Source: Myxococcales bacterium (GTDB lineage: Bacteria > Myxococcota_A > UBA9042 > JABWCM01 > BTVJ01). Taken from it: 48,463 bases of DNA. Under the pieces are notes generated by a model. The model was not told where the DNA came from and searched no databases. It worked only from the letters and a program-made list of their open reading frames with translations. Numbering within the stretch: the stretch's first letter is position 1; each line of letters begins with the position of its first letter. Shown here one piece after another: positions 29,721 to 46,570 of this stretch. The stretch lies in assembly GCA_045863395.1 (NCBI GenBank), contig BTVJ01000057.1, forward strand, positions 1-48,463. The letters are read 5' to 3'. The position numbers were made by a program, and so were the translations under genes.

Positions 29721-30080
29721 CCCTCCCCGGAGCCGGAAGGCTGCGAGTGCAGCGCCGATCTCGTCGAAGCGAGCGCATGGAGACAAGCCCCTGACCGCAG
29801 TGCCGCCTGCCATCCCTCCTCCACCCTCCTCGTCCACGCAGCCAGCTCTCCCGTCGGCGGCGAAGCTGAGGGCGATGATCGCGCAGATCACGCCGATCTC
29901 GAGGAAGGTGGCGGGGAGGAGCTCCTTCTGAACGAGCGCCTCCGATGGTGCCTGTGTGGACCGAAGCACAGGCCACCTGCGCGGTGAGCTCCATTCGAAG
30001 CGCTTCGTGAGAGTGGGCGGCGGTCTCTCTCCCCGCAACCGATGGGGGCACGGTCAGCGAACGCCATGGCGTGTGCCCGA

Positions 30081-30115
30081 TTGATCCTGGTAGCGCCGGT
30101 AGCTACATTGACCGC
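30081..30115 (+). promoter_or_regulatory. Leaderless-type promoter and probable operator of TA pair 1
   Basis: TTGATC-N17-TACATT-N6-ATG(30116); GGTAGC twice and palindrome GTAGCTAC overlapping the -10. Confidence 0.65.
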
Positions 30116-30418
30116 ATGAAGGCGGTCGGGATCAAGACCTTGAAGAATGAGTTGAGCCGGTACCTGCAGCTCGTGCGTCGCGGCGAGGTCGTGCTTGTCC
30201 TCGACCGGGACGAGGTCGTCGCGGAGCTGCGCCAACCCTCGGTCCTGGGTCCACACGGCGGTGACAGGTACGAGGCTGCCCTTGCGGTCCTGGAGGCGGA
30301 GGGGGTTGTCAGGCGGGCCCTCGGTCCGGGCCCGTCACCCTCCGATGTCGTCGCAGCGCTGACGCAAGTTCCCGATGTGGAAGAGATTCTTCGAGAGGTG
30401 GGGGGTGACCGCTTCTGA
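30116..30418 (+). CDS. Phd/YefM-family antitoxin
   Basis: MKAVGIKTLKNELSRYLQLVRRGEVVLV.DR..VVAEL. Confidence 0.88.
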   Translation: MKAVGIKTLKNELSRYLQLVRRGEVVLVLDRDEVVAELRQPSVLGPHGGDRYEAALAVLEAEGVVRRALGPGPSPSDVVAALTQVPDVEEILREVGGDRF

Positions 30419-30863
30419 CCCGGCCTTCATCGACAGCAGCGTCGTCCTCTCCATTCTGCTGGGACAACCGCAGGCGCGAGAGGCAGCGGCGCTGTGGGAC
30501 GCACATCCCCGCCGCGCCGCGTCGATCCTCCTGGAGGCGGAGTGTCGGACCGTACTTCGGCGAACCGCACGCGCTCGGGCCACGGTCCTTCCGCCCGATT
30601 GGCGGCCCTCGAGCGAGCGGTTGCTCGAAGAGTGGCTCGAGTCGGTCTCACTCCACGCGGTCACTCCCAAGGTCGTCGCCCGGCTCGGTGCGGAGCATGT
30701 CCTTGGAGGGTGTCGTACGCTCGACGCCTTGCACCTGTCGACCGCGCTGCTGCTCCGCGACCGCGTCGGGGCCGATCTCGTCCTGATCACGTTCGACCGG
30801 GACATGGCCGAGATGGCACGTTCCTTGGGCTTCGTCGTTCGAGGCGTCCCGGACGGGCTGTGA
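30405..30863 (+). CDS. vapC: VapC PIN-domain toxin
   Basis: FIDSS, E in LEAECR, RTLDALHL, TFD; GTG start overlapping the antitoxin. Confidence 0.88.
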   Translation: MTASDPAFIDSSVVLSILLGQPQAREAAALWDAHPRRAASILLEAECRTVLRRTARARATVLPPDWRPSSERLLEEWLESVSLHAVTPKVVARLGAEHVLGGCRTLDALHLSTALLLRDRVGADLVLITFDRDMAEMARSLGFVVRGVPDGL

Positions 30864-31046
30864 GCCCGCAGAGCCAGGTCCACCACGATCAGCGTAGTAG
30901 AGGAGGACCTCGCCGGAGGAGCGGTCTCTGATCGCTTTCAGCTCCTGGATGGGCGCATCCAACCAGCTCCGCGACGGTCCGACCTGCGCGGACACCTCGG
31001 GTGCCCCCCTGTTCATCGCGACGAGCCCGCGCTGGCGCCTGGACGG

Positions 31047-31081
31047 TGGACTCCCGTCGGACCGAGGGCTATGGTGTCCGC
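31047..31081 (+). promoter_or_regulatory. Leaderless-type promoter of pair 2
   Basis: TGGACT-N17-TATGGT-N6-ATG(31082); imperfect palindrome CCCGTCGGACCGAGGG in the spacer. Confidence 0.55.
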
Positions 31082-31324
31082 ATGAGCGTGACCCAGCAGG
31101 ATCGGGACTACATGCGGCGCATCGGCGCCTACAAGGCGCTGTCCCATGCGGAGGCTGCGGCCGCCCACGCCGCCCTGTCGCTGACGGAGCGGCTGCGTGA
31201 GAGCTGGGCGCTGTCGCTGCGCGCCTCTCCACTGCCTGCTGGTGAAGCGGACTGCGACGCGGGGGACCCTGACGAGCTGCGCTTCTACGAGCGGGCGCGT
31301 GCGCTCGGCCTCTGCGATCCGTGA
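31082..31324 (+). CDS. 80-aa hypothetical protein, probable partner/antitoxin of the nucleotidyltransferase
   Basis: Promoter-proximal ATG; LSLTERL motif; GTGA overlap with the next gene. Confidence 0.65.
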   Translation: MSVTQQDRDYMRRIGAYKALSHAEAAAAHAALSLTERLRESWALSLRASPLPAGEADCDAGDPDELRFYERARALGLCDP

Positions 31325-31835
31325 GTCCCCTCGACCTCGACGCCATCTACCGTCTGTTCGACGCCGCCGGCGTGCCGTGGGCGCTCATCGGTGGTCACGC
31401 GGTCAACGCGTGGGTGGAGCCCCGCGCCACCGCCGACGTGGACGTTGTGCCGCGGACTCCGCGGGTCTCGAGCGCCTGCGCGCCGTCTTCGCTGGGCTCG
31501 GGCCGGAGCGCGTGCACGGCGCCACGGCGCCCTCGGGGCCGGACTTCCTTCGATACGTGTCGGATGACCGTCGGGTCGTGGTCGAGATCCAGACGGCCAA
31601 GACCCGACTCCAGCGCGACACATTGCGGCGGGCCGTGCGGCAGGGAGATGCGTGCGTCGCCACTCCTGAGGACCTGCTCGTGATGAAGCTGATCGCCTTC
31701 AGGACCAAGGACCGAGCGGACCTCATTGCCCTCGTGAGTCTCCCGGGGCTCGACTGGCCCTATGTCGAGGACCACGCGCGGGAGTGGGGTGTCCTGGAGC
31801 GTCTGGCCCGCCTGCGCGCCGCGCTCTCGCTGTGA
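31321..31835 (+). pseudogene. Frameshifted nucleotidyltransferase (AbiEii/DUF6036-like)
   Basis: ALIGGHAV...PRATADVDV in one frame, continuing after about 31448 in another frame to ATPEDLLVMKL...KDRADL. Confidence 0.8.
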
Positions 31836-31975
31836 GGAGCCGACTGCAGGAGCTTCGGGACACGTTCCACGGCACCACCACTGCGGTCTGGACAACACTC
31901 CCCCTGGACCAGTAAGTCGCTATTGAACAGTCGTTGGCTCGGCTTGGCGTTGTGGTCGAGCCCCGCAGTCCGTCG

Positions 31976-32374
31976 TCAGCACACCACCGTCACCAGCCCA
32001 CTGGACTGGATGCGCGAATCGAGGGTGAGCAGCGGCAGGCCAAGGACTCGTGCGGTGGAGACGATGAGGCGGTCTCCCGGGTCCCGGTGGAAGCTGTCCG
32101 GCAGCGCGGCGACCTCGGCGGCAATGGCCGCGTCGATGGGGGTGACCCGTACAAGGGGAGCAGCCACTGCCCGGGCGAGCCACGATCCCAAGGGGATGGT
32201 GGGGCGGAGACGCCCGAGTGAGACGAGCGTGGCGATCTCCCACAGGCAGATGTCCGGGACGAGCAGTGGAGACTCTGCTGACACAGTGGCCAGGGCCTCC
32301 GCCATGCGGGGAGTGAGCCGGGTCGGCTCGCTGGTCCACCAGACCAGGACGTGCGTGTCTGCCACGTAGCTCAT
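31976..32374 (-). CDS. vapC: VapC PIN-domain toxin
   Basis: YVADTHVLVWW, LWEI, HRDPGDRLIVSTA, LLTLD. Confidence 0.92.
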   Translation of the reverse strand: MSYVADTHVLVWWTSEPTRLTPRMAEALATVSAESPLLVPDICLWEIATLVSLGRLRPTIPLGSWLARAVAAPLVRVTPIDAAIAAEVAALPDSFHRDPGDRLIVSTARVLGLPLLTLDSRIQSSGLVTVVC

Positions 32375-32607
32375 CTGACCTCGGCCTCCCAAGCACCCGG
32401 GGGCAGTGGTGGCTCGATCAGGTCATCCATGGCCGACATCGTGCCGATGAGCGTGGCCTGTGGCGAGTCGACGTGCGCCGTCACCGGGACCAACCGCGCG
32501 ACAGCCCGACCGCGCTTGAGGATCAGGATCTCCTCGCCCGTGTCGGCCACCTCGTCCAGCAGAGCCAGGCAGCGGGTCTTGAACTCGGTCGCAGGCAGGG
32601 TCTTCAT
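32371..32607 (-). CDS. Phd/YefM-family antitoxin
   Basis: ATEFKTRCLALLDEV..TGEEILILKRGRAVARLVP. Confidence 0.92.
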   Translation of the reverse strand: MKTLPATEFKTRCLALLDEVADTGEEILILKRGRAVARLVPVTAHVDSPQATLIGTMSAMDDLIEPPLPPGAWEAEVR

Positions 32608-32642
32608 GTGACCAGTCTTGGTGACCAGTTTCGCGTTGTCAA
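32608..32642 (-). promoter_or_regulatory. Leaderless-type promoter with tandem operator repeats (pair 3)
   Basis: Minus strand TTGACA-N17-AAGACT-N6-ATG; GTGACCAGT at 32608-32616 and 32621-32629. Confidence 0.7.
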
Positions 32643-32684
32643 CACGAACGAGGCCCAGGGGCGCTGGCGTGCGGAGAACACAGG

Positions 32685-32795
32685 CGGCCTGCCGCCTACG
32701 CTCACTGGCGTTGCCGGCGTCCTCCTGGCCGGCGGCCTGCTCACCCTCGCGTCAATCATCGGCGTCATCATGCTGTTCGGCATCGCGACGCACAG
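32685..32795 (+). pseudogene. Short fragment resembling a CzcA/CusA RND efflux C-terminal TM region
   Basis: LPPTLTGVAGVLLAGGLLTLASIIGVIMLFGIATH resembles the LP.ALIGG...LSIAS.VGFI.LFGIA.RN segment of HME-RND pumps; no start or rest of gene. Confidence 0.55.
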
Positions 32796-32977
32796 CATGC
32801 CAAGCTGTCACGTGCGCCAGCCCGCCGACACTGAGCGCATCGGCGTCCTGGACTCTCTGGTTCGCCCGCGGGCCGCGCTTTCGCTGTGATGGACTGACCC
32901 CGCGGCCGCCTCGCGACACGTCCCACGGCACCAGCGCAGAGGATGAGAGGACTGCCGAGGGGTCACTCCTCGCAGGC

Positions 32978-33391
32978 TCAGCGCGGCCAGACGACCTGGA
33001 CATGCCCACGCCCGGTGACGCTCGCGATGAAGGGTGGGGGGCGGTCACGCGCAAGCTGCTGCATCCGGCCCACGGCGCGAAGGAACGAGTCGGCCATCTC
33101 GTCGGCGGTCGCATTGCCCGTGACGAGCACGAAGAGCCGGACTCCGGAAGACTCCACCTGATAGCGCTCGGACTCGCGGTAACGGATGCGGGCGTCCTTC
33201 GAGAGGCCGATCCAGCCTTCGGACCCCACGCGGCTGAGCCACACCTCGTCGGGGGCGTCCTGGGGGAACAGCTCGTCGTGGGCGACGATGGGCATCCCGG
33301 CGCTCCGGAGGCGCTCGGCTACGTGCCGTCGCCCGAGGGACCGGTCGACGAACCAGGTGAAGCCGGGATCAGGCTGCCTTGGGGAGCGCAC
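32978..33391 (-). CDS. VapC45-like PIN-domain toxin
   Basis: WFVDRSLG, DEVWL, GWIGLSKDARIRY...E; GTG start overlapping the upstream gene's end (start uncertain). Confidence 0.8.
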   Translation of the reverse strand: MRSPRQPDPGFTWFVDRSLGRRHVAERLRSAGMPIVAHDELFPQDAPDEVWLSRVGSEGWIGLSKDARIRYRESERYQVESSGVRLFVLVTGNATADEMADSFLRAVGRMQQLARDRPPPFIASVTGRGHVQVVWPR

Positions 33392-34028
33392 CGCGCAAGA
33401 CCTCTTCGATGGCATCCCTCCCGCAGCCGTAGTCGTCAGCGAGGGCATCCACGGACTCGCCGGCCAGATAGCGCCCGATGACGACGTCGGTGGGGGCGCC
33501 CGTGCCCGCGATGATCGGACGGCCGAAGGCGATGCGGGGGTCGATGACGACGACCCGTGGCGCGTCGTCCGTTGCCACCCGTGTGAAGGGGTAGAGGCGC
33601 GTCGCGAGCCCGGCGGAGTCCCGCTCGACGCGGCGCAGGTGGGTCCCGACAACGCTCCGCAGGGCGACCTGACCTTGGCGGCTCACGTTGAACAGGGTCT
33701 CCAGGTGGGTGATGAAGAGGTCTACGCCGTCGGTCTCGAAGTCCGCGCGCGCCAGCGGCCGAGGGTGACCGAGCTGCACGGTCAGGTACTCTACACCGTC
33801 ACGGATGGCCGTCATCCGGACGCTGTGCACCCGCCGCAGCGCGGCGAGGACGTGCGCCTCGACCAGGTTCGTGAAAGAGAGCACCGTGCGCGCCGGATCC
33901 GGCAGCGCAATCAGCGGCGTGCCCGGGCCCCGGACCCACCGCCGCAGCGTGCCGGCGGGGACGCGCAGCAGGCTCGCGGCTTCGGTGAGCCCGTAGGTTG
34001 CATGGTCTCGTGGGTCGCGGGCGGTCAT
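33369..34028 (-). CDS. HTH + DUF433 antitoxin (VapB45-like)
   Basis: YGLTEAASLLRVP.GTLRRW, LSFTNLVEAH, IDPRIAFGRP, GES..ALA.DY; GAGGAGG SD. Confidence 0.88.
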   Translation of the reverse strand: MTARDPRDHATYGLTEAASLLRVPAGTLRRWVRGPGTPLIALPDPARTVLSFTNLVEAHVLAALRRVHSVRMTAIRDGVEYLTVQLGHPRPLARADFETDGVDLFITHLETLFNVSRQGQVALRSVVGTHLRRVERDSAGLATRLYPFTRVATDDAPRVVVIDPRIAFGRPIIAGTGAPTDVVIGRYLAGESVDALADDYGCGRDAIEEVLRGALPKAA

Positions 34029-34205
34029 CGCAAGAAGAGCCTCCTCGGCACACCTACCACAGTCGGACGCCCGAGGGAATTCCGTGGCGGAGGGACTCCG
34101 CGGGACCACCCGAACGGGGGCCGCGCGACGGCGGAGGGGCCCCGCTCCAGAGCGCCGCTCTGGCGGGCTGGCCAGACGCGAGTGGTTGTGGTCCACTGTG
34201 ATGGC

Positions 34206-34760
34206 ATGGCGCCGAGCCGATCAGAGATCATGGCGCGGATCCGGGGCTCGGACACGGCCCCCGAGGTCGCTCTGCGCGTCGCCCTGGCAGCGCGGGGCAT
34301 CCTCCCCAGCCCTGCTGCCCGCGCTCCCGTGGGGCGCCCTGACCTCGTGCTCGCCGACCGCCGCACCGCCGTCTTCATCGACGGGTGCTTCTGGCACGGC
34401 TGCCCGCTCCACTACGCCCGACCTCGCACCCGCGACGAGTTCTGGGCCGCGAAGCTGGTCTCGAACATCGAGCGCGACGCCCGCCAGTGCGAGGCCCTGG
34501 TTCACGCGGGGTGGGTCGCGCTCCGCTTGTGGGAGCACGACATCGTGGAGGACCCCGAAGAGGTAGCCGCGGTCGTCGAGCAGGTCCTGATGGGCGCTGG
34601 AGCGCCACCTTGGGAGGAGCAGCGGCGTGTTCGTCGCGTGATCGACCTCGGGGATTGTGTCGAGCGGAGGCTCGTGGTACTCCTCGGTGACCCTACGTCG
34701 GTGGTCGAGGTGACAGAGGGGCCTCGTGTCACCGCCAAGGCGCGGGCGCGACGCCGTTGA
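34206..34760 (+). CDS. vsr: Very short patch repair endonuclease
   Basis: RSEIMARIRGSDTAPE, GRPD, FIDGCFWHGCP, FW..K...N.ERD, WEH; extra C-terminal tail. Confidence 0.93.
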   Translation: MAPSRSEIMARIRGSDTAPEVALRVALAARGILPSPAARAPVGRPDLVLADRRTAVFIDGCFWHGCPLHYARPRTRDEFWAAKLVSNIERDARQCEALVHAGWVALRLWEHDIVEDPEEVAAVVEQVLMGAGAPPWEEQRRVRRVIDLGDCVERRLVVLLGDPTSVVEVTEGPRVTAKARARRR

Positions 34761-36520
34761 GGCAGCCCCGGTGGGACCACGGCGGCGCTGCGACGCCCGG
34801 ACCCGCAACGCGCTCTCGACCCTCCCGGACCGCGAGACCGATGCCCAGGACTGCCCGGCCCGACGCGACCGTTCCGACGGGACAAATCCTGCTCTCCGGG
34901 TGGGGCGCGCGTCCGGCGGCCCCACTCTTCCAGGACCTGCAGGTGCCGCCTCGGGAGCCGATCCCGGCTGCGACGACCGACCTCATCAGGCGCAAGCTGC
35001 GCCGCATTCGGGCGGGCGGGGCGCCACGGAGCATGGACCTGTTCGCCGGCTGCGGAGGCATCTCCCTGGGCTTCCTGACGGCAGGCTTCACGCCGGTCGC
35101 ATCCATCGAGAGCGATCCATGGGCGGCCGCGTCGCACGGCGCCAACTTCGGGCTGCGCTCCCATGGCGGCGACCGCCCCGCCCTCCACGTGTCCAGGGAC
35201 GTCACCGCGGAAGACGCGGCCCGCGTCTTCGCAGACCTCGGGCTCGATGGGCCAGTGGACGACCAGGTCGACGTGCTCGTCGGTGGTCCGCCCTGCCAGG
35301 CATTCGCCCGGGTCGGCCGCGCCAAGCTCCGGGAGCAGGCGCAACGGCGCCAGGAAGAGACGGCCGATCAGGCATTTCTGGTCGACGGCCGGGTGAGCCT
35401 CTGGCAGCGCTACGTCGCCTTCATCCGCGCCACGAAGCCCGTCGCCCTGCTGATGGAGAACGTGCCCGACATCCTGAACCACGGCGGCACGAACGTGGCC
35501 GAGCTGGTCTGCAGGAGCCTCGTCGAGGAGGGCTACCGCGTCACCTACACGCTGCTCAATGCAGCCTGGTACGGGGTCCCCCAGACCCGGGAGCGCATGA
35601 TCCTCGTCGGCTTCCACGAGGCGACCGGCATCCAGCCGAGGTTTCCGTCGCCGACCCACCACGTAGACCTGCCGTCAGGATATGCCGGGTCGAAGAACAC
35701 CGCGCGGCGTGTCCTCAGGGAGCACGGCTCGGAGCACCACCGCTGGGTGGCAGACCCTCCGCGCAGTGCGCGTCCCGCCACGACGGCGTCCGAGGCCCTC
35801 GCCGACCTCCCTCCGCTCCGCGCCCTCGATCTGTTGCGGGAGGGGAGACTCCGCCGGGGGGCCAAGGATCCGTCGGAGCGCGTCGACTACACGACGGGCA
35901 CGCCTGGCACCTCGTACTCCCGGCTGATGCGCGAGTGGCCCGGCTACGCGGTCCCCTCTACGACCGGCCACGTCTTCCGCTTCCTGCCCCGCGACTACAA
36001 GATCTTTGCCGAGGTCGAGGCGGGCTGGGAGTACCCCGACGTCCACGCCCACGTGGAGCGGAAGATCGCGGCCTGGCTCGGTGATCGGAAGCGCCGGGGG
36101 TTGAGCACGGACCCGCGCCACCCGGACGTGCGGGACTTCGTCGCGGCGTGGCGCATCCCCTATGACCCCGCCAAGTTTCCGAACAAGTGGTGGAAGCTCG
36201 ACGCCGACAAGCCTGTCCGCACCCTCCTGGCACACCTGGGCAAGGACTCCTACTCGCACATCCACTACGACTCGGCGCAGGCGCGAACAATCACGGTCCG
36301 TGAAGCCGCCCGCCTGCAGTCCTTCCCGGATGGGTTTGTCTTCAAGGGTTCCATGAACCCGGCCTTCCGCCAGATCGGCAACGCCGTACCGCCGCTGTTC
36401 GCCTACGCCATCGCGATGGCCATGCGTGGGTCCCTGGGTGCCCCAGCCATCGGGGACGTGCGGGTCGGGTTTCTGGGCATTCCGCAGTCGGAGATCGCGG
36501 CCACGGAGGGCTCACCATGA
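34757..36520 (+). CDS. DNA (cytosine-5) methyltransferase
   Basis: DLFAGCGG, GGPPCQ, ENV, PQTRER, REAARLQSFPD, GNAVPP; true start may be TTG 34757 or ATG 34841. Confidence 0.95.
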   Translation: MRQPRWDHGGAATPGPATRSRPSRTARPMPRTARPDATVPTGQILLSGWGARPAAPLFQDLQVPPREPIPAATTDLIRRKLRRIRAGGAPRSMDLFAGCGGISLGFLTAGFTPVASIESDPWAAASHGANFGLRSHGGDRPALHVSRDVTAEDAARVFADLGLDGPVDDQVDVLVGGPPCQAFARVGRAKLREQAQRRQEETADQAFLVDGRVSLWQRYVAFIRATKPVALLMENVPDILNHGGTNVAELVCRSLVEEGYRVTYTLLNAAWYGVPQTRERMILVGFHEATGIQPRFPSPTHHVDLPSGYAGSKNTARRVLREHGSEHHRWVADPPRSARPATTASEALADLPPLRALDLLREGRLRRGAKDPSERVDYTTGTPGTSYSRLMREWPGYAVPSTTGHVFRFLPRDYKIFAEVEAGWEYPDVHAHVERKIAAWLGDRKRRGLSTDPRHPDVRDFVAAWRIPYDPAKFPNKWWKLDADKPVRTLLAHLGKDSYSHIHYDSAQARTITVREAARLQSFPDGFVFKGSMNPAFRQIGNAVPPLFAYAIAMAMRGSLGAPAIGDVRVGFLGIPQSEIAATEGSP

Positions 36521-38514
36521 TCTTCACGATCCTGCGCCTCCTGACCCACTCGGAGCTCGGCATGTTCCACGCGTACCGTCGCAGCGGACGCGAGGGATCG
36601 AGGCAGCGCGCCATCAACTTCGACGGGGACGTCGTGGACCGCGTGTTTCCGTCGGCCAAGGACTCGGACCGCATCGCAATCACCTGCCGCTGCCCGGACG
36701 ACGCAGGCACCGTCACGGTGAGAGACCAGTGGCTCAAGAAGCAGGACAAGAACTGGCGCCTGGAGGGTCACTGCCCGACGAGTCCGTACTACGCCTTCGT
36801 CGAGCCCGGCGTCCTGTTCGCGATGGTGGTGGACGCCTCGGTCACCCCGGCGGTTGCCTCGTGGGTGGTCGTGCCGACGGATCACCCGGCGCGGACCGCC
36901 ATTGTCCACCATGGCGAGAGCGCGAGGCTCGGGAGCTCCGCCATGATCGCGCTGTACGGGGAGGAGGGCGACCACTGCCGCTCCGTCCTGGGCGCCCACT
37001 TCCCCCACCTCTTCGAGGAGGCTGGTTCCATGGCGAACGACCCGGCACCGACTCACGGCGGGGAGGTTCCGCCGGATCCCCTCGGCCTGTTCAAGATCCT
37101 GGCGCGTGCCGGGCACAGCCTGCCGAGCGCCGTGGCGGACCTCGTGGACAACAGCCTCTCGCATGGGGCGACCGCCATCGACATCGTGTTCCCGAACCCC
37201 AATGACGGCGGGCGGTGGATGTGCATCCGCGACGACGGCGAGGGCATGACGCCCGACGGCCTGCGCGACGCCATGCGGATCGGGCATCAACGGGAGTATG
37301 GTGACGCCCACCTGGGGAAGTACGGGTACGGCCTCAAGGGCGCAGCGTGGTCGCAGGCCGACCGCCTCACCGTGGTCTCGAAGGCTTCTGGAAGTCCCTT
37401 GGGGCATCTCATCTGGGACAAGGACCACCTCGCGAAGACGGGACGCTGGGAGCTCCTCACCGACCCCGTGGAACCGAGGCACGCGGACGCCGTTCGGATC
37501 GCTGACTCGGGGACCTCCGTCCTGCTCACGCAGATGCGTCCACCATTGGAGGCGCCCAAGGGGAAGAGGGGCGAACCCTACGCACAGGAGCTTGCGGAGA
37601 TCCGCTTCCACCTCGAGCTGGTCTTCCATCGGTTCCTGGAAGGGAGGGTCCCCGGGCGCCAGAAGGTCACGATCCGCCTGAACGGAGCGCCGCTTCGCTC
37701 CAACGACCCCATGGGCCACTCGCTGACCAAGGTGTACGAGGAGCGCCGGATCGAGCTGCCTGCGCAGGACCCGTCCCGTCCAGCCGTGATCGCCGTGCGA
37801 CCCTACGTCACGCCCAACGAGGCGGAGTTCAATGAGCACCACAAGAGCCTGTCGCCCGAGGATCTGCGGGTCGAGCGTGACCGGCTGACGCTCAACGGCC
37901 GGTGGAACGACGCGCAGGGCCTCTACTTCTACCGGCTCCACCGGCTGATCAAGTGGGGTGGGTGGGAGGACCTGTTCGCCAAGGACGAGCACACCAAGCT
38001 GCTCCGCGTGGCGGTCGACTTCGACCGGTCGGCAGAGGAGGCGCTTCAGGTGGACATCAGCAAGCAGCTCGTCCGCCTGCCGTTGGCCGTGCAGGACCAC
38101 CTCAGGGAGATCCTGAGGGGCCCGCGCGCGGAGGCTCGGAGCCGTTATGACAGGAAGGTCAAGCCGCCCGGGCCGCCTCGGCCACCCCACGACGATTCGG
38201 AGCTGAGTGACCCGCCCTCGCCCCCGCATCCTCCGAAGGGCGTGACGCTCCCGAAGGAGTCCAAGAAGACGCCACCGCCCGCAAGAGATGCGTCACCGCT
38301 CCGGCTCGTGGAGGAGGGCACCGCCCCGTGGGAGCGGAAGACGACGTTCACGGGCGAGCAGGTGGAGATCACCCCCGCGATCCCGGCACTGGTGGCTCTC
38401 GCGAAGGCCATCGACAAGGACAACGACGCCAAGAAGGCGCTGTCCGAGTTCCTGCGGGTGCTGGAGCAGGCCGGCGTCGTGTCGCTCCTTGGGGGCGGTC
38501 CCCATGGCGAGTGA
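36517..38514 (+). CDS. MORC/MutL-type GHKL ATPase with an extra 171-aa N-terminal domain (EcoRII-N/B3-like)
   Basis: AVADLVDNS, DDGEGM, LGKYGYGLK, GT, QGLYFYR..RLI.WGGW; ATGA overlap with the methylase. Confidence 0.88.
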   Translation: MIFTILRLLTHSELGMFHAYRRSGREGSRQRAINFDGDVVDRVFPSAKDSDRIAITCRCPDDAGTVTVRDQWLKKQDKNWRLEGHCPTSPYYAFVEPGVLFAMVVDASVTPAVASWVVVPTDHPARTAIVHHGESARLGSSAMIALYGEEGDHCRSVLGAHFPHLFEEAGSMANDPAPTHGGEVPPDPLGLFKILARAGHSLPSAVADLVDNSLSHGATAIDIVFPNPNDGGRWMCIRDDGEGMTPDGLRDAMRIGHQREYGDAHLGKYGYGLKGAAWSQADRLTVVSKASGSPLGHLIWDKDHLAKTGRWELLTDPVEPRHADAVRIADSGTSVLLTQMRPPLEAPKGKRGEPYAQELAEIRFHLELVFHRFLEGRVPGRQKVTIRLNGAPLRSNDPMGHSLTKVYEERRIELPAQDPSRPAVIAVRPYVTPNEAEFNEHHKSLSPEDLRVERDRLTLNGRWNDAQGLYFYRLHRLIKWGGWEDLFAKDEHTKLLRVAVDFDRSAEEALQVDISKQLVRLPLAVQDHLREILRGPRAEARSRYDRKVKPPGPPRPPHDDSELSDPPSPPHPPKGVTLPKESKKTPPPARDASPLRLVEEGTAPWERKTTFTGEQVEITPAIPALVALAKAIDKDNDAKKALSEFLRVLEQAGVVSLLGGGPHGE

Positions 38515-40819
38515 GGGGCGGCCCCGCTTCACGCTGAGGCCCCGGGTCAGGCTCTGGACGGATGGCACAGTCTGGCGGAGCTGGTCGCGACACGAAGACT
38601 ACCTGCGTGCCCAGCCCAAGTGGAAGCCGCATCAGGTCGACTCCGTGGCCGAGGAGTCCCTGCGCATCCTCGCGAAGACCACGCCGGTCGCCCGTCCTGA
38701 GTTCCAGTGCCGCGGCCTCGTCGTCGGCTATGTCCAGTCCGGCAAGACGGCCAACTACACGGCGGTCGCCGCACGTGCGGCCGATGTCGGCTACCGCCTG
38801 ATCATCGTGCTGTCGGGCATCCACGACTCGCTCCGCAACCAGACGCAGCGGCGCCTCGAGCGTGAGCTTGTCGCGGTCGGCGCGGACTGGATTGCGCTCA
38901 CCGGGCCGGAGTCGGACTTCCAGGAGCCTCCCGTGGCGGACGGGTTCGACGCCACCGGGACCGTCCTCGTGGTCGCCAAGAAGATCGTCCCCATCCTGGA
39001 GCGGCTGGTCGGATGGCTCGGCAGGATCGAGGGTCGGCTCGCGGACGTGCCGGTGCTCCTCATCGACGATGAGGCGGACCAGGCGTCCATCAACACACGC
39101 GGCAACCGGCGAGATCCGGGTCTGGACGACGAGGACGTGGTCGATGGCGAGAGCCCGTCCCGCACGAACGGGCTCATCCGCGACCTGCTGAGGCGGTGCC
39201 CGCGGGCGACCTACCTCGCGTACACCGCGACGCCCTTCGCGAACATCCTGATCGACCCTGGCGCCTACGACAATCACGTCGGAGATGACCTCTTCCCCAA
39301 GGACTTCGTGGTGCAGCTCCCCCGGCCGGACGGGTACACCGGCACCGAGGAGCTGTTCGGCGTGAAGGCGCAGGGTCGCGACGTGCTTCGTGTGGTCGAT
39401 GAGCAGGACGTCCGCGCGCTGAAGCCGAAGCGCCGGAGGCGGGGGGCGCCGCTCGTGGCCCACGGGCCTGTCGACCTCCCGCAGTCACTGTGCGACGCCG
39501 TGCTCACCTTCGCGCTCGTCGGGGCCATCCGGCTGCTGCGAGGGCAGGAGGGGCAGCCGCACACGATGCTGGTGCACGTCTCGCAGGCGCAGAAGGAGCA
39601 GCTCCGCATCGGGGCTGCCATCGAGGACCGCGTCCGCGCCTGGTTCAATCACGACCACGCCGAGCCCGGTGTGATCCGCGGGATGATGCGGTCCGCGCTT
39701 GCCGACCTTGGCGACGTGGCGCTCCCCGCCGATGTCGATGCCGTGCTTGTCGAAGCGGCGCGGAACCTCGCGCGCTTGAAGGTCGTCGTGCTCAACAGCA
39801 CCACGGGCGAAGAGCTTGAGTACGAGGAGCAGCCCGGCCGGCAGCTCGTGGCTGTCGGTGGCAACCGCCTCTCTCGGGGCCTTACGCTGGAGGGCCTGAC
39901 CGTCGCCTACTTCCTGCGGACCACGTCGATGGCCGACACCCTGCTCCAGATGGCTCGCTGGTATGGCTTCCGCACCGGATACGATGACCTGATCCGACTC
40001 TGGACCACCAATGGCATCGCCCAATGGTTCGTGGAGCTGGCCCTGGTCGAAGACGCGCTGCGGGACGCGATCATGGCGCTCGACAAGGCGGGCCGGCGCC
40101 CCGATGAGATGGCGATTCGCCTGCGCGCCCACTCTGACCTGCTGCTGACCAGCAGGGCCAAGAGCAGGATGCAGGAGCTCGATGCCCGCTCCTGGTCCGG
40201 CCAGAACCCGCAGACCATCCTGTTTCCACTTCACGACGCCGGCGCGCTGGAGCGGAACCTGGCGCTGGCGTCGGAGCTGCTCTCCCTGCACCCGCCGACC
40301 CAGGATGCCCACGGTGGTGCGATCACGCATGACGTCCCGGGAGAGAGCGTGGCTGCGTTCCTCCACCGCTTCGAGGGCCATACGAACAGCGTAGCCTTCC
40401 AGGGAGATCGCCTCGCGGACTGGATCGTGGAGCGCATGGTCGACGGAGAGCTGACGACGTGGACCGTGTTCGTGGCGAGCCCCGGGCGCGAGAGGCAGGT
40501 GATGCTGGGCGGGCGGCCCTACGGTCTGGTCCGCCGCTCGCTTACGGGGCATGAGGCCATCGGCATCCTGATCGATCCGCGCCACGAGGGGGTGGATCTG
40601 CGCGGCGGTCCCGAGAGCTACCGCTCCGGCGCAGCATACAACGCACGCGCCATGCGGCAGGACCGCCCGCCCGAGCGTGGCCTGCTCCTGCTCTACGCCC
40701 TGGACCCCACCCCACTGTGTGCGCAGTCCCGCGCGGTGCTCGGCGTGGCCCTGTCACTTCCCCGAACCAGCGATGACGGTCGCTCGTGGGTCGTGAACCG
40801 GGGGCTCCTCCGTGCCTGA
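38504..40819 (+). CDS. Z1-domain protein (SF2 helicase-like + Z1)
   Basis: GYVQSGKT, DDEADQAS, YTATPFAN, DLFPKDF, GGNRLSRGLTLEGL, DTLLQMARWYG; ATG at 38504. Confidence 0.92.
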   Translation: MASEGRPRFTLRPRVRLWTDGTVWRSWSRHEDYLRAQPKWKPHQVDSVAEESLRILAKTTPVARPEFQCRGLVVGYVQSGKTANYTAVAARAADVGYRLIIVLSGIHDSLRNQTQRRLERELVAVGADWIALTGPESDFQEPPVADGFDATGTVLVVAKKIVPILERLVGWLGRIEGRLADVPVLLIDDEADQASINTRGNRRDPGLDDEDVVDGESPSRTNGLIRDLLRRCPRATYLAYTATPFANILIDPGAYDNHVGDDLFPKDFVVQLPRPDGYTGTEELFGVKAQGRDVLRVVDEQDVRALKPKRRRRGAPLVAHGPVDLPQSLCDAVLTFALVGAIRLLRGQEGQPHTMLVHVSQAQKEQLRIGAAIEDRVRAWFNHDHAEPGVIRGMMRSALADLGDVALPADVDAVLVEAARNLARLKVVVLNSTTGEELEYEEQPGRQLVAVGGNRLSRGLTLEGLTVAYFLRTTSMADTLLQMARWYGFRTGYDDLIRLWTTNGIAQWFVELALVEDALRDAIMALDKAGRRPDEMAIRLRAHSDLLLTSRAKSRMQELDARSWSGQNPQTILFPLHDAGALERNLALASELLSLHPPTQDAHGGAITHDVPGESVAAFLHRFEGHTNSVAFQGDRLADWIVERMVDGELTTWTVFVASPGRERQVMLGGRPYGLVRRSLTGHEAIGILIDPRHEGVDLRGGPESYRSGAAYNARAMRQDRPPERGLLLLYALDPTPLCAQSRAVLGVALSLPRTSDDGRSWVVNRGLLRA

Positions 40820-41765
40820 CGTGACGGCCGAGCGCTGGGAGTCGCTCCGTCTGCGGCGGTCAGCCTGCGAGCTCATCACCGAGCCCGTCGAGGAGGGCTG
40901 GCCAGGCGGCCTGCTCGGAGTCGACGAGGACGGCCGGCTGCACCTCCTGGTCGCCGTTGAGGGGGATCCCGCGACTCTGTCTCCTGACCTCCGGGGCATC
41001 GAGGTCCGGGTGGTCGAGGACGGGGGGACATGGCTCGACGTCTCCGCCAGGGGCCACCACGAGGAGCTCTTCACCCTGCTCGCCAACGGGATCCTCCGGG
41101 CGATCCGCGCTGAGGGGCGCGACCCGGCAGCCTCCGTCGAGAGCGAGATTGAGGCGCTGCGCGCCGCGCTCCGGCCGGTGCCCTCCGAGTTCGGAGACAG
41201 CAAGCAGATCGGGCTCTTCGGAGAGCTGTGGGTCCTGTCGAACGTGCTGCTCCCGACGCTTGGCGGCCGCGCCTGCCGCCTCTGGAGCGGCCCCGACGGG
41301 GAGCGGCACGACTTTGTGGGACTTGGGGTACACGTGGAGGTGAAGGCCACGACCCGTGGTGAGCAGAGGCACGAGATCTCGCGCCTCGACCAGCTCCGCG
41401 CTCCGCCCGGCAAGCGCCTGCTCCTGGCCAGCGTCCTCCTGGAGCGGTCGCGCGGCGGAGAGCTCACACTGGCCGACCTCATCGACGAGGTCATCGCGAA
41501 GCTGGGTCAGGACTGGCAGGCCATTGACGCACTCGAAGACGGCCTGAAGAGGCTCGGGTGGAGCGACGGACTCCGCCAGTCTGGGGCCCTGCTGCGCTTC
41601 AGTCTCCGCGAGGCCCACGTCTTCGAGGTCGAGGGCTCGTTTCCCCGCCTGCCCGACGACTACGAGCCGCCCCGCGGTGTGACCGGCGTGAAGTACGTGA
41701 TCGACGTGTCGTCTCGGCCGTCGCTGAGCACGTCCGCTGTGGAGGGGATCCTGCGGGCCATGTGA
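40812..41765 (+). CDS. PD-(D/E)XK motif protein (DUF4420-like)
   Basis: GLFGELW, W.GP....HDF......VEVKAT, IS.LDQL, FPRL. Confidence 0.88.
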   Translation: MPDVTAERWESLRLRRSACELITEPVEEGWPGGLLGVDEDGRLHLLVAVEGDPATLSPDLRGIEVRVVEDGGTWLDVSARGHHEELFTLLANGILRAIRAEGRDPAASVESEIEALRAALRPVPSEFGDSKQIGLFGELWVLSNVLLPTLGGRACRLWSGPDGERHDFVGLGVHVEVKATTRGEQRHEISRLDQLRAPPGKRLLLASVLLERSRGGELTLADLIDEVIAKLGQDWQAIDALEDGLKRLGWSDGLRQSGALLRFSLREAHVFEVEGSFPRLPDDYEPPRGVTGVKYVIDVSSRPSLSTSAVEGILRAM

Positions 41766-41948
41766 GCCTGACGCCCCGCGGGGAGCAGGCGCCAGGGACA
41801 AGGGAGTGCCGGGCGACTCCTCTGGGGGGCGGCTGTGGTGCATCGAGATCGAGTTGGGATTGGTCCGGGCTACCATGTGGACACAAACTTGACCGATTGG
41901 CGCTGATCTGCTGTCCTTGCCGGAATCTCACCACTGAAGGAGGACTGC

Positions 41949-42623
41949 ATGGAGCGGACGCGTGAGGAGCTCATCGAACAAGGAGATCGGCTGTCCAGCC
42001 CCGCCGTGATCGCGCAGACGCGGCTCAGCCTGAAGCTGGCCCGGCGGGATGCCGAGGGGCTCGCGGCCAACGGCTGGGCTGTGAAGAAGACGGACGCGCT
42101 GGAGGCGGACCTCGCCGCGCTGGAGGCGGCCAACGCCTCGTACACGGCGCGCTTCGGCGCTCACTCGGCCAACGGCAAGGCGGTGGCTGCGGCCGTGGGG
42201 AGCGCCAAGAAGTGGCGGGTCCGCACCCTGGCCATCGGGCATGCAGCCCTGACCGGGGAGGCGCTCGGGGCGTTGGAGAAGGCGACCTCGCCTACGAGGG
42301 GCAGGGCGGACCGCCTGGCCCAGCAGATTCAGGCCCTCGCGGACATCGTCGAGGCTCACGAGGCCCTCTTCAAGGAGGAGGGCGCGAGCGACGGGCACCT
42401 CGCGGAGGGTAAGGCGCTCGCCGCCGCACTTGCGCAGGGCACGGCGACCCAGGCGAGCCGCCGCCGGGACCTGCCCGCCGCCCACGACGAGCTGGACGAG
42501 CTGGACGGGCGCATCTTCTTCCAGCTCAAGGCGCTCCACCGCTCCGGCCGCGCCCACCATCTCACCGTCGGCGATCGCGCCCGCGCCAACGAGTACAATC
42601 TGGATCTGCTCTACAACCGCTAG
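41949..42623 (+). CDS. 224-aa predicted all-alpha hypothetical protein with apparent internal duplication
   Basis: Strong SD GAAGGAGGA, typical codon bias, Ala/Leu/Glu-rich amphipathic helices; no recognisable catalytic motif. Confidence 0.85.
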   Translation: MERTREELIEQGDRLSSPAVIAQTRLSLKLARRDAEGLAANGWAVKKTDALEADLAALEAANASYTARFGAHSANGKAVAAAVGSAKKWRVRTLAIGHAALTGEALGALEKATSPTRGRADRLAQQIQALADIVEAHEALFKEEGASDGHLAEGKALAAALAQGTATQASRRRDLPAAHDELDELDGRIFFQLKALHRSGRAHHLTVGDRARANEYNLDLLYNR

Positions 42624-42627
42624 ACCT

Positions 42628-43028
42628 CGCCGGCGCCGGAGGCGGGCTGCACGGCGCCGGAGCAGGGCTGCACGGCGCCGGAGCAGGGCTGCACGGGTGC
42701 CGCCACGTCTCCGCACGGCGCCGGAGGTGGGCTGCACGGCGCCGGAGCTGGGCTGCACGGCGCCGGAGCGCCTCCGCACGGCGCCGGAGCAGGGCTGCAC
42801 GCGTGCCGCCACGCCTCCGCACGGCGCCGAAGCGCCTCCGCACGGCGCCGAAGCGCCTCCGCACGGCGCCGAAGCGCCTCCGCACGGCGCCGGAGCACGT
42901 CCGCACGGCGCCCGAGTCGGGCTGCACGGCGCCCGAGTCGGGCTGCACGGCGCCGGAGGCGGGCTGCACGGCGCCAGACGTGGGCTGCACGGCGCCGGAG
43001 CACCTCTGCACGGCTGCCGAGCGCTCGT
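42628..43028. repeat. Tandem array of about 19 units of 21 bp (two units are 22 bp)
   Basis: Consensus GCACGGCGCCGGAG + variable 7-mer (CAGGGCT, GCGGGCT, CGCCTCC etc.); well-conserved units run from 42649 to 43007; 22-bp variants at 42691 and 42797. Confidence 0.95.
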
Positions 43029-43303
43029 CGGGCGTGCAGCACGGTCACGCGCAGGATCAAGAGTGGTGTGATCGTGCGCTGCGCCGCCTGGAGCCACCAG
43101 GAGGCCTCCTGGATGGCGTCCACCTGATGCGCCGCGGGGTGTGGTTGACCCCGGCGGGGTGCTGCCGCTACGCTCACGCCGCAGTGAGGCAGCGTCGGAG
43201 GCGAGTCCTCGTCGCTCGTTGCCGGGCGCGCGCGGTCCCGACGCTTTGCCCCGGGGATGACGCTGCTCTTCCGTCCCGGATTCCGCCCGGTACAGGACCC
43301 GAC

Positions 43304-43480
43304 ATGCTGAACCTCACGCTCCGAGAGGAGTTCCGCGGCAGGGGCCTCCAGGGCACGCAGATCGAGCTGCCGACCGCAGTGACCCTGCCCGCGGCGCGCT
43401 TTCTCGAGATCGTCGACCCGGACGACGCCGACCCGGACGGCGACGCGTGGGTCGGCCTCTACCACCCCCGAATCTCGTGA
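43304..43480 (+). pseudogene. N-terminal remnant resembling a DUF499-family AAA ATPase
   Basis: AGGA SD + MLNLTLREEFRGRGLQGTQIEL...PAARFLEI matches my recollection of DUF499 protein N-termini; ends after 58 codons. Confidence 0.55.
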
Positions 43481-43488
43481 GGCCCCCC

Positions 43489-44673
43489 ATGACCGCGCCC
43501 TTCATCAAGAGCGTGACGCTCCGCGGCTTCCTGTCCTTCCCGCCCGAGGGAGTGACCCTCCCCATGGCGCCCCTCAACGTGCTCATCGGGCCCAACGGAT
43601 CGGGGAAGTCCAACTTCATCGAGGCGCTGGCGCTGCTGCGCGCCGTCCCGAAGGATCTCCCCCTGCCGGTCCGTCAGGGGGGCGGGGTGCGCGAGTGGCT
43701 CTACCGGGGGGAGCCGCAGGCCACGCGCGCCGAGATCGACGTGGTCTTCGGGGAGGGTCACGTCGCGTACCCGCCGACCCTGTCGCCGCCCGCGGTGCGC
43801 TATCACCTGGCCTTCGGGGTGGACGGGGAGTCGTTCGTGGTCCTCGACGAGAGGCTCGAGAACGAGTCGGGGAAGCCCAAGCCCTACTTCTACTTCGGCT
43901 ACGAGAACGGTCGGCCCATGGTGAACGTGGCTGGCGGCAAGAGGGAGCTTCGTCGCGAAGACATCGACCCGGCGCAGTCGATCCTGTCGCAGCGCCGCGA
44001 CCCCGACACCTACCCCGAGATCACGCGCCTCGCCGACCGGCTCGGCCGCATTCGGACGTACCGCGAGTGGGCCTTCGGGCCGGACTCCCCGATCCGCCAG
44101 AGCAGCCGGGCGGACGCGCGCGCCGACGGGCTGAGCGAGGCGCTCGACAACCTGCCGACGCGCCTGGCGGTCCTGAAGCGCGACCCGGCGGTGAAGCGCG
44201 AGCTCCTGGCGCGCCTCGGCGACGTCGCTCCGGGCTTCACCGATCTGGAGGTGGTGCCGGAGGGCGGGCGGCTCCAGCTCTACCTCACCGAGGGGCGCCA
44301 CAACGTCCCGGCGCATCGGCTCTCCGACGGCACGCTGCGCTATCTGGCTCTGCTCGCCATCCTGCTCGACCCGGCGCCGCCGCCGCTGGTCGTCATCGAG
44401 GCGCCGGAGCTCGGGCTTCACTTCGACCTGATGCCGAAGATTGCGCAGCTCCTCGGAGACGCCTCCACCCGCGCCCAGCTCGTGGTCACGACCCACTCCG
44501 ATGTCCTCGTGGATGCCCTCCAGGATGCACCGGAGCGGGTCGTCGTCTGCGAGAAGGGCGACGGAGGCACGACGCTCCATCGCCTGGATGCTGCGCCGCT
44601 CGCGGAGTGGCTCACGAGGTACTCGCTCGGCACCCTCTGGACACGGGGTCAGCTCGGGGGGACGCGATGGTAG
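43489..44673 (+). CDS. ABC-type (AAA_21-like) ATPase with altered Walker B
   Basis: LIGPNGSGKSN, LSDGTLRYL, VIEAPE (usually IEEPE), TTHS; typical LG.LW..G.LGG.RW end. Confidence 0.88.
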   Translation: MTAPFIKSVTLRGFLSFPPEGVTLPMAPLNVLIGPNGSGKSNFIEALALLRAVPKDLPLPVRQGGGVREWLYRGEPQATRAEIDVVFGEGHVAYPPTLSPPAVRYHLAFGVDGESFVVLDERLENESGKPKPYFYFGYENGRPMVNVAGGKRELRREDIDPAQSILSQRRDPDTYPEITRLADRLGRIRTYREWAFGPDSPIRQSSRADARADGLSEALDNLPTRLAVLKRDPAVKRELLARLGDVAPGFTDLEVVPEGGRLQLYLTEGRHNVPAHRLSDGTLRYLALLAILLDPAPPPLVVIEAPELGLHFDLMPKIAQLLGDASTRAQLVVTTHSDVLVDALQDAPERVVVCEKGDGGTTLHRLDAAPLAEWLTRYSLGTLWTRGQLGGTRW

Positions 44674-44948: not shown

Positions 44949-46570
44949 CCGCCGTCGCCGGCCTCCTGCCCGGCCAACGGGTCCGTCCCCCCGATTTTGG
45001 CGAGGGAGTGGTCGTCGACCCCCTACGAGACGGGTTGGTTCGCGCCTTCTTTGGTGTCGGCGAGCGCCAGGTGCAGGGGTCGGCCCTTCGCTCCGCGCTG
45101 TCGCGGACCGAGCGGGTGGCCGCAGGGGGTCGAGGGCACGCCTGACCGCCTCCGGTGCGCATGGCTGGCCCTGGAGGCACGGTCACTACCGCTGATGGAG
45201 AGCGCCGCGGCGCTCACGTCAGCTCGCATCGATCTGCTGCCGCATCAGGTCGTGCTCACCCACCGTGTCGCCACCGGGTCGCCGCGTCGCTCTCTGATCG
45301 CGGATGAGGTCGGGCTCGGAAAGACCATCGAGACGGCGCTGATCCTGCGGGACCTTGCGGGACGGGGCGAGCTTCGGCGGGCGCTGATGGTCGTGCCGGC
45401 GGGTCTCGTCAACCACTGGCACCGCGAGCTCAAAGAGGTCTTCCACCTCGACTTCGAGGACTTCGGAAGCAAGGGGGACGTCACCGACCGGAAGACCAAT
45501 GCTTTCGCGAAGCACGACCGCCTCATCGCCAGCATCGACACATTGAAGCGACCGGCCCGCTTGGCCGGGTGTCGTTCAACTTCGATCTGCCGTGGAACCC
45601 GATGGACGTGGAGCAGCGCATCGGGCGCATCCACCGCTACGGGCAGCGGGACACAGCGCAGGTCTACAACCTGGTGCTCTCGGACACCATCGAGGGGCGC
45701 ATCTTCCTGCTGCTCGACGAGAAGCTCACCGAGATCGCCAGGGCCCTCGGCAAGCTGGACGAGCACGGGAACGTGGCGGAGGACTTGCGGAGCCAGATCC
45801 TCGGACAGCTCTCCGAGCGCATCCGGTATGACCAGCTCTACCAGCAGGTGCTGTCCGACCCGGAGCTCCGGCGCACCAAGGTGGAGCTGGAGGTCGCGCT
45901 CGAGCACGCGAAGGAGGCGCGGACCGTCGTCTGGCAGCTCTTCCAGGACCTCGACGGCTTCAACCTCGACGACTACCGCCCGCTGTCCGACGTGAGCGCG
46001 GGCCTCGGCCGCATCGTTCGGTTCCTGCGGATGGACCTCGCCGAGCGCCACATGCGTCTGGAGCCGCGGCCGGACGACACGCTGGCGGTCCTCGACGAAC
46101 ACGGGCGCTTGCACCTGCAGTTCACGACGGATCGGGAGGTGGCGAGGCGGCAGCAGGATGTGGACCTGCTTGGGCTCGATCATCCACTCGTGCAGGCGGC
46201 GCTCCGTCACCACGGGGCCACGGAGCCCGAGCGGCTGGGCGCGGCGGTAGACGGGACGGGGGAGGGGCCAGTCCTCGTGAGCTTCTGGCACGTGGAATCC
46301 CAGGGCGGGGGGCGCGAGCGGTCCGCCCAGATGATCCGCTTGGCGGTGGATGCGACAGGCCGGCGTCTGCCGCACCTCGAGCGGCAGGCCGACGACCTCT
46401 TCTCCCGCGAGTCAGCACCGCCCGCCCTCAGCTTCGGGGAACGTATGGCGCTGCTCCACGACCACGTCGAGCCCATGCTGCAGCGGGAGGTCGTGCTGCG
46501 CGGAGCCAGCCCCGAAGGGGGTGGGTTTCGCGCCGAGCTCGTGGGGCTGGTCGAAGTGAAGGGAGGGTGA
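44945..46570 (+). pseudogene. SNF2/RapA-type helicase with frameshift and large internal deletion
   Basis: LLPHQ, ADEVGLGKT, VVPAGL...W..EL, then after about 45563 directly DLPWNP..VEQRIGRIHRYGQ in another frame; DEAH and motifs III-V absent; +1 shift at the G run 45125-45129. Confidence 0.85.

Follow-up and report, generated by a model that had tools for sequence, protein, structure and literature searches.

A prokaryotic MORC-type ATPase gene with a predicted B3 DNA-recognition domain and a conserved candidate internal start at the domain boundary

What is the region that precedes the ATPase of a prokaryotic MORC protein, and why does a ribosome-binding site with an in-frame start codon lie exactly where this region gives way to the ATPase? 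The question is raised by a stretch of 48,463 nucleotides from a Myxococcales bacterium (contig BTVJ01000057.1 of assembly GCA_045863395.1; this whole stretch is hereafter called the window), in which one forward-strand gene joins an N-terminal domain of its own to a GHKL ATPase of the MORC type. The original prediction, made from the letters alone, held that the N-terminal domain resembles the B3 domains of EcoRII and its kin, and that the gene either yields long and short isoforms, as McrB does, or is a recent fusion. The operon that contains the gene is of a known, mechanistically unsolved kind; what is new here is the fusion of B3 to MORC, which is conserved and has an internal start under selection. 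The parts of the gene that the argument requires are these:

36517..38514, + strand: B3-MORC long form, 665 residues (B3 domain, linker, MORC-type GHKL-S5 ATPase, Pro-rich linker and C-terminal dimer domain)
36517..37014, + strand: predicted DNA-recognition domain of the B3 type (EcoRII-N / BfiI-C / LlaJI.R1-N), residues 1–166, from AlphaFold2, VIA and Foldseek
37015..37021, + strand: internal Shine-Dalgarno (SD) sequence GAGGAGG, codons 167–169, read from the window
37030..37032, + strand: codon 172, ATG, the internal start; the frame is open up to it
37030..38514, + strand: predicted short form from the internal start, 494 residues, the MORC ATPase minus B3
37072..38151, + strand: GHKL and S5 ATPase module, about residues 186–545, containing the MORC motif GLYFYRLHRLI
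38299..38496, + strand: C-terminal domain, about residues 595–660, predicted homodimer interface common to the long and short forms

The N-terminal domain folds confidently as a B3 domain when modelled. Its AlphaFold2 model, built from 101 sequences, has a predicted local distance difference test (pLDDT) score of 93, and among 48,161 solved chains compared by VIA the best match is the C-terminal domain of BfiI bound to DNA (3zi5; Z 12.7, root-mean-square deviation (rmsd) 3.1, 145 residues aligned). EcoRII-N (3hqf; Z 11.4, rmsd 3.0, 138 aligned) and LlaJI.R1-N (Z 10.1) also score highly, and UbaLAI, plant B3 domains and NgoAVII come next. All 13 of the top rows are B3-family domains or proteins containing one, while the row after them falls to Z 3.0. 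Foldseek likewise ranks EcoRII-N first (E 7e-5), and EcoRII-N clusters are also indicated by the features of the ESM Atlas (0.95, with a recognition value of 1777 that lies under the mark of 2300). The EcoRII-N/B3-like fold proposed earlier is thus borne out by modelling, and its boundary, previously placed at 171 residues, can be refined: the folded domain ends at about F166, and residues 167–185 form a linker. In the full-length model, B3 (1–166) is followed by this loose linker (pLDDT 57 at 171–180), GHKL-S5 (about 186–545), a disordered Pro-rich linker and the small C-terminal domain.

Several results from sequence comparison weigh against the B3 assignment. Profile searches gave no significant match to EcoRII-N (best E 0.23, for one of 28 family members), no B3-domain match was obtained among PDB sequences by profile search, and identity to the solved B3 domains is only 5–14%. 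In Pfam, residues 1–171 have no match above the cut-off, and the window domain falls short of PF09217 (EcoRII-N). An assignment to EcoRII-N at the level of sequence was therefore rejected, as the Pfam, PADLOC, NCBIfam and PDB profiles were all without a significant match.

The relatives of the locus comprise 65 loci from genomes and, out of 111 from metagenomes, the best 80, giving 146 with the window. They were retrieved with patterns from N-terminal motifs of the B3 domain, so that conservation in that part is biased. Basic and polar patches of the domain are invariant, namely R7, E13, E26, Q30, R31 and N34, a patch affected by the search patterns, and N79, W80 and R81; we take these patches to lie on the N- and C-arms, which would bind DNA. 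In this pattern-biased sample the B3 domain and the target region of the neighboring methylase are both nearly invariant across loci and so carry little information on covariation. From fold and context, we infer that the B3 domain would supply sequence specificity.

Could the domain instead be an autoregulator or a non-specific DNA anchor? The B3 domains of plant transcription factors have the same fold, and there are related operons in which no B3 was detected: L148 combines the same methylase family with a MORC-Z1-AIPR operon and has no detectable B3 within 14 kb. This last case also weighs against a general role of B3 as reader, and because of it B3 is not the sole possible one. On the other side, the closest structures are the B3 domains of restriction enzymes, and the family recurs on HNH_2, NurA-like, ResIII helicase and NOV_C domains, as would be expected of a targeting module; we regard an autoregulator or anchor as improbable.

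The distribution of the family elsewhere was followed in some detail. Among the 49 representatives scanned, the fusion partners of B3 include GHKL, ResIII helicase, NurA-like and HNH_2 domains. Individual cases include NurA-like fusions in P0185, P0193, P0188 and P0192 (with a Pfam NurA match in P0185 and P0193), and fusions to HNH_2 (P0202) and to ResIII helicase (P0179), a tandem B3 (P0172) and a B3 with a sigma-70 tail (P0168). On a Sinorhizobium plasmid (L149), a stand-alone B3 gene of 192 residues (1700–2278, − strand; annotated as hypothetical) matches the family profile with E 6e-26 and is 31% identical to the window domain. It lies between a 49%-identical methylase and Vsr, and points away from an operon of stand-alone MORC, Z1, nuclease and AIPR genes; such a stand-alone B3 may be an unnoticed reader of some Mza-like systems. 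On a Deinococcus plasmid (L150), B3 is fused to a NOV_C domain (7983–9128, + strand) beside a 50%-identical methylase and Vsr, an arrangement that resembles a minimal type II-like system with the same reader family. Because L149 and L150 pair both partners in other architectures, B3 and this methylase family appear to travel together. Across the phylum, 3 of the 401 genomes searched contain the B3 family; of the loci concerned, L152 shares its linker with L001, L153 being left aside.

Is the fusion genuine, and how old is it? No in-frame stop lies ahead of 37030 in the gene, as had been read from the sequence. Contigs from two other studies (X4, X7) cross the junction with 0 gaps, although 105 substitution rows are unlisted and single-base differences are possible there, and an independent 665-residue relative (P0030), with an N-terminal domain 94% identical, likewise has an uninterrupted frame across this Met. 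When longer relatives were sought, 517 proteins were obtained from 1855 candidates, homologs from Pseudomonas putida and Myxococcus stipitatus among them; all 120 of the matches listed carry PF13589, and 117 of these 120 homologs measure 640–700 residues. B3 and the GHKL motif share a single frame in 145 of the 146 loci, window included, down to about 40% identity. Because of this the fusion is taken to be old: a recent or accidental fusion through a lost stop was rejected, and this alternative of the original prediction is not supported.

The sole unfused locus, L060, has a B3 gene cut short at 131 residues, with no operon partners found. The sequence after it looks transposase-like, and the locus is probably a broken copy. 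Most of 29 short matches look like fragments; P0007, which ends just after the B3 domain, may be a true split allele. In three homologs of 911–912 residues (L036, L126 and L131), an insertion of about 245 residues separates B3 from GHKL; it looks ParB-like, with a helix-turn-helix.

What, then, is the ribosome-binding site for? The spacer between GAGGAGG and the ATG at 37030 is 8 nucleotides (CTGGTTCC), and this arrangement, in frame and at the domain boundary, is just as first described. SD energies were computed with the canonical anti-SD sequence, which was assumed and not read from the host 16S; the 16S 3′ end was looked for in this genome and not found. At internal ATGs in 600 long open reading frames (ORFs), sampled from 1981 in the same genome, an SD at least as strong (−11.8 kcal/mol) occurs in 18 of 5445 cases (0.33%). 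A GTG at codon 512 of the same gene scores −12.0, so the strength of an SD is by itself no proof; this codon was rejected as a second internal start, since it is not conserved (GTA in 28 of 48). The RNA runs X15 and X16 yield short scattered contigs only, which are silent on starts or levels. The mRNA is more open at the internal start than the gene median in 17 of 17 cases and richer in A downstream of it (0.39 vs 0.22); both features may reflect linker composition and are given little weight.

The case for the internal start is carried by codon usage among relatives. In a FastTree tree computed without the linker from 130 of the 146 rows (short, truncated and identical rows and L036 being left out), the window sits in a clade of 49 rows with support 100, whose members are 60–99% identical. 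Codon 172, six codons after F166, is ATG in 5 and GTG in 44 of these 49 members, with 3 switches between ATG and GTG and no other codon. Its count of synonymous changes is 0, against a mean of 7.7 over 35 control Val columns, of which only codon 1, the true start, is likewise at zero. Within the SD, every Lys167 is encoded by AAG and every Glu168 by GAG; in comparison, none of 35 Lys and none of 33 Glu control columns is invariant. Columns with zero synonymous change number 8 among 582 scorable ones, namely 1, 167, 168, 172 and four scattered others. Moreover, the internal SD beats the gene's own SD in 42 of the 49 members (median −11.4 vs −6.3). On this codon-level evidence, the SD and start codon at the boundary between reader and nucleoside triphosphatase (NTPase) are under selection, which supports the idea of long and short isoforms as in McrB; the short form is probably made alongside the long one.

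Beyond the clade the picture is more mixed. At the protein level, M or V occupies position 172 in 112 of 124 close relatives (of 178 examined, which overlap the loci). In 41 dereplicated genes outside the clade, which are kin and not independent, so that p-values for them are inflated, ATG is found at 30 of 851 codons of the N-linker vs 10 of 2062 codons of the C-linker. Other observations count against a general internal start. Thus, 36 of the 49 clade members form a tight subgroup, so that independent lineages are nearer 11–17; a linker ATG or GTG whose SD reaches −5 occurs in only 16 of the 41 outside genes, as compared with 4 of 41 for the control linker; and the neighboring clade is mostly without the site, having GTA, ATA, GTT or no start there. 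Position 172 is A, T or G in 7 of the 124 close proteins, and L, of unknown codon, in 5 more. Because some sister lineages lost it, the internal start seems to be optional.

These data bear on two further explanations of the site. The SD-like motif might serve some purpose other than initiation, for example to make ribosomes pause between the domains or as an RNA or DNA signal, with little short protein made. Its position exactly at the domain boundary would suit such a role, purine-rich Lys and Glu codons readily give SD-like words, and at codon 512 an equally strong site has arisen by chance. A pause, however, requires no start codon, yet codon 172 alternates only between ATG and GTG, at a fixed 8-nucleotide spacing and in frame in 49 of 49 members; and a consensus scan of the region, which is a weak test, found no internal promoter of the sigma-70 type. 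In our opinion, another signal is quite improbable here. Alternatively, the internal start may be a leftover of the fusion that is decaying neutrally, as the split arrangement is known (L149) and the start has decayed in several lineages. Nevertheless, the fusion predates the clade of 60–99% identity, within which an ordinary synonymous site has undergone about 7 changes and these three none, and we find a neutral leftover hard to credit.

If translated, the short product, of 494 residues, would equal in size the stand-alone MORCs of 494 and 496 residues. The PADLOC MzaB profile match begins at its residue 14 and the Pfam HATPase_c_3 match at residue 30 of the part after the internal ATG, and one database protein (P0248) was called from the internal start. 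The C-terminal domain, modelled as a homodimer, scored 0.61, against 0.00 for the best of 3 controls; the runs agree in at least 91% of contacts, with pLDDT at least 75, and the modelled interface comprises residues 624–648. Among 30 solved homodimers, 20 attain the mark for this score, as does 1 among 23 single chains. The dimer model supports, without showing, a pairing of the long and short forms.

We read the short form as a tuner of the long one, because it is dispensable in sister lineages. It could instead be a working subunit: either a long/short heterodimer would form a clamp with one reader, suited to an asymmetric site or one-way loading, or the internal start would raise the output of MORC and the translationally coupled Z1 and nuclease relative to the reader. 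Stand-alone MORCs of equal size are the usual form in related operons, the internal SD is the stronger one in most of the clade, the Z1 start overlaps the MORC stop, and the dimer domain is present in both forms. Many sister operons look intact and lack the internal start, which makes an obligatory heterodimer unlikely. Present evidence fits damping and a positive structural role alike, a point that weighs against the preferred reading; all considered, we judge a working subunit unlikely, though less so than the other alternatives discussed.

The genes around B3-MORC form an operon of fixed composition:

34206..34760, + strand: Vsr very-short-patch repair endonuclease (Pfam Vsr 6e-17; start codon approximate)
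35033..36520, + strand: C5 cytosine DNA methyltransferase, 495 residues (Pfam DNA_methylase 1.5e-55; NCBIfam dcm above cut-off)
38504..40819, + strand: superfamily II (SF2) helicase-like Z1 protein (MzaC-like), 771 residues (Pfam Z1 1e-59; start overlapping the MORC stop)
40812..41765, + strand: DUF4420 PD-(D/E)XK nuclease (MzaD-like; Pfam DUF4420 2e-56)

The order C5 methylase, B3-MORC, Z1 helicase and DUF4420 nuclease, with Vsr, is fixed. Of the loci that extend 2 kb upstream, 114 of 116 have a methylase match, and of those that extend 3 kb, 80 of 99 have Vsr; on the downstream side, Z1 is present in 111 of 112 loci with 2.5 kb and DUF4420 in 103 of 104 with 3.7 kb. The methylase stop and the B3-MORC start overlap as ATGA at the window locus, and an overlap is found in 92 of the 146 loci. 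Two tblastn queries for AIPR (MzaE) gave no match in the 146 loci, many of which have only 4.5–7.5 kb downstream. The MORC sequence contains the GHKL motifs DLVDN, DDGEG, GKYGYG and GT together with GLYFYRLHRLI, and MORC2 gives the top PDB sequence matches. The Z1 protein fits the motif DThhQXuRhFG as DTLLQMARWYG, with Y for F, and the DUF4420 protein carries the E-D-ExK residues.

Other features of the window are recorded for completeness. In the 5′ region of the methylase (35140–35248), about 23 clustered differences separate the X4 and X7 contigs from the window, to which they are nearly identical elsewhere; this is a mosaic patch between strains. Short joints at 40698–41047 and 41185–41976 in X4 and X7 (the first also in X15) skip parts of DUF4420, where another X4/X7 contig is continuous; they perhaps reflect repeats or other strains. 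Ahead of the operon (30071–34196) lie several small gene pairs that by eye resemble toxin-antitoxin modules (PIN- and DUF433-like), such as a defence island contains. After it come a 224-residue ORF without a Pfam match and then short tandem repeats over about 500 bp, with 7-residue units in translation (41949–43100), and an AAA_21 ATPase (43447–44673). At 44997–46570, SNF2 N-terminal and Helicase_C parts in different overlapping frames suggest a deleted or frameshifted helicase gene.

How does this operon relate to known systems? MORC/Z1/DUF4420 operons have been predicted to be restriction systems since 2008 (PMC2292703). By its text definition, the present operon is of the third prokaryotic MORC type of Iyer, Abhiman and Aravind (2008; PMC2292703), with the same MORC GHKL-S5 protein bearing the GhXhhpXXRhl motif, SFII-Z1 helicase, novel nuclease of the restriction endonuclease (RE) fold, C5 methylase and Vsr. 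There, a VP1/RAV (B3) protein figures in the text only as a gene of its own, in neighborhoods of the SWI2/SNF2 type, and neither a B3-MORC fusion nor an internal start is mentioned; a fusion may be drawn in its figure 2 or supplement. Miller et al. (2022; PMC9523054) describe the Z1/DUF4420/methylase core and leave the mechanism open. The portions consulted of PMC8011034, the Tiamat and MANTIS preprints and PMC13069673 give no account of the fusion or its internal start, nor was a description found in the literature searched, subscription papers and preprint supplements being outside reach.

The Mza system (mzaABCDE) has the same order of MzaB-, MzaC- and MzaD-like proteins. Unlike in Mza, the window proteins score far below the equivalog cut-offs for MzaB, MzaC and MzaD (141/850, 354/1500 and 58/420), no AIPR was found, and a C5 methylase, Vsr and the fused B3 are present. 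General profile scans of the operon proteins gave no model match to a Sigma-like MzaA, no search having been aimed at it. CglI/NgoAVII likewise combine a C5 methylase, a B3 recogniser and a DEAD-Z1 ATPase, which B3 binding presumably triggers; their B3 is borne by a PLD nuclease and they lack GHKL, whereas in the window B3 is borne by MORC and the PD-(D/E)XK nuclease is separate (PMC4267653).

The closest parallel in design is McrBC. Its McrBL and McrBS likewise derive from an NTPase with an N-terminal reader, of which an internal in-frame start removes about 160–170 residues (PMC12707154, PMC2993543); the reader-less McrBS, a product of internal initiation, withdraws the nuclease from active complexes (PMC12707154). 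In LlaJI, a B3 reader of an unmodified site is carried by an McrB-type NTPase (PMC12707154, PMC2993543). The likeness is one of design and not of homology, since the NTPase is a GHKL dimer here and an AAA+ hexamer in McrBC; McrB, moreover, reads methylated DNA, unlike the proposed B3 reader. In the gene-within-gene antitoxins RpnL/RpnS (PMC10400984), an internal start similarly yields a C-terminal fragment able to bind the full-length protein. Rpn, however, is a single-gene nuclease toxin, whereas the fragment here would keep the ATPase and lose only the reader.

Building on the computed fold, fusion, operon, codon-level selection and modelled dimer interface, we propose that the operon encodes ATP-dependent restriction and modification. 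In this scheme, the C5 methylase would mark host sites, and Vsr would repair the T:G mismatches that arise from methylation. The B3 domain of the long MORC form would read the unmethylated site and load the GHKL clamp, which would engage the Z1 motor and the DUF4420 nuclease, B3 binding starting both, much as it presumably triggers the DEAD-Z1 ATPase of CglI/NgoAVII. From the second in-frame ribosome-binding site, a 494-residue MORC without the reader would be made. This short form could pair with the long form, because both share the C-terminal dimer domain, and would compete for Z1 and the nuclease. It would thereby set the number of DNA readers per machine and most likely damp self-cleavage, as McrBS does for McrBC. 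As a whole, a long form that reads the unmethylated methylase site and a short form that pairs with it and tunes its activity, McrBS-like, seems to us a reasonably probable account.

A bolder proposal is that the operon represents an undescribed class of ATP-dependent restriction enzyme, in which the MORC clamp itself carries the reader and one gene supplies targeted and untargeted clamp subunits, the long form being coupled to the methylase and the short form having its own, stronger start. Since the start of the long form overlaps the stop of the methylase, synthesis of the reader could require that the methylase be translated, and synthesis of the short form not. Loss of methylase translation would then leave blind clamps and a disarmed nuclease. 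The dependence on methylase translation is speculation, and the proposal as a whole is tentative, with the chances rather against it.

In our opinion, the significance of these results lies in the following. The four core genes and a predicted reader on the ATPase make the target site, the sensing of methylation and the order of subunits directly testable. Through its conserved internal start, the gene becomes a candidate for the small group of defence genes with a built-in regulator (McrBS, RpnS), a phenomenon whose generality has been posed as an open question (PMC10400984). The B3 family, invisible to Pfam, recurs on other nucleases and helicases. If a MORC protein indeed carries its own reader, this would offer the simplest way to learn how the MORCs of prokaryotes, from which the eukaryotic chromatin MORCs descend, are aimed at DNA.

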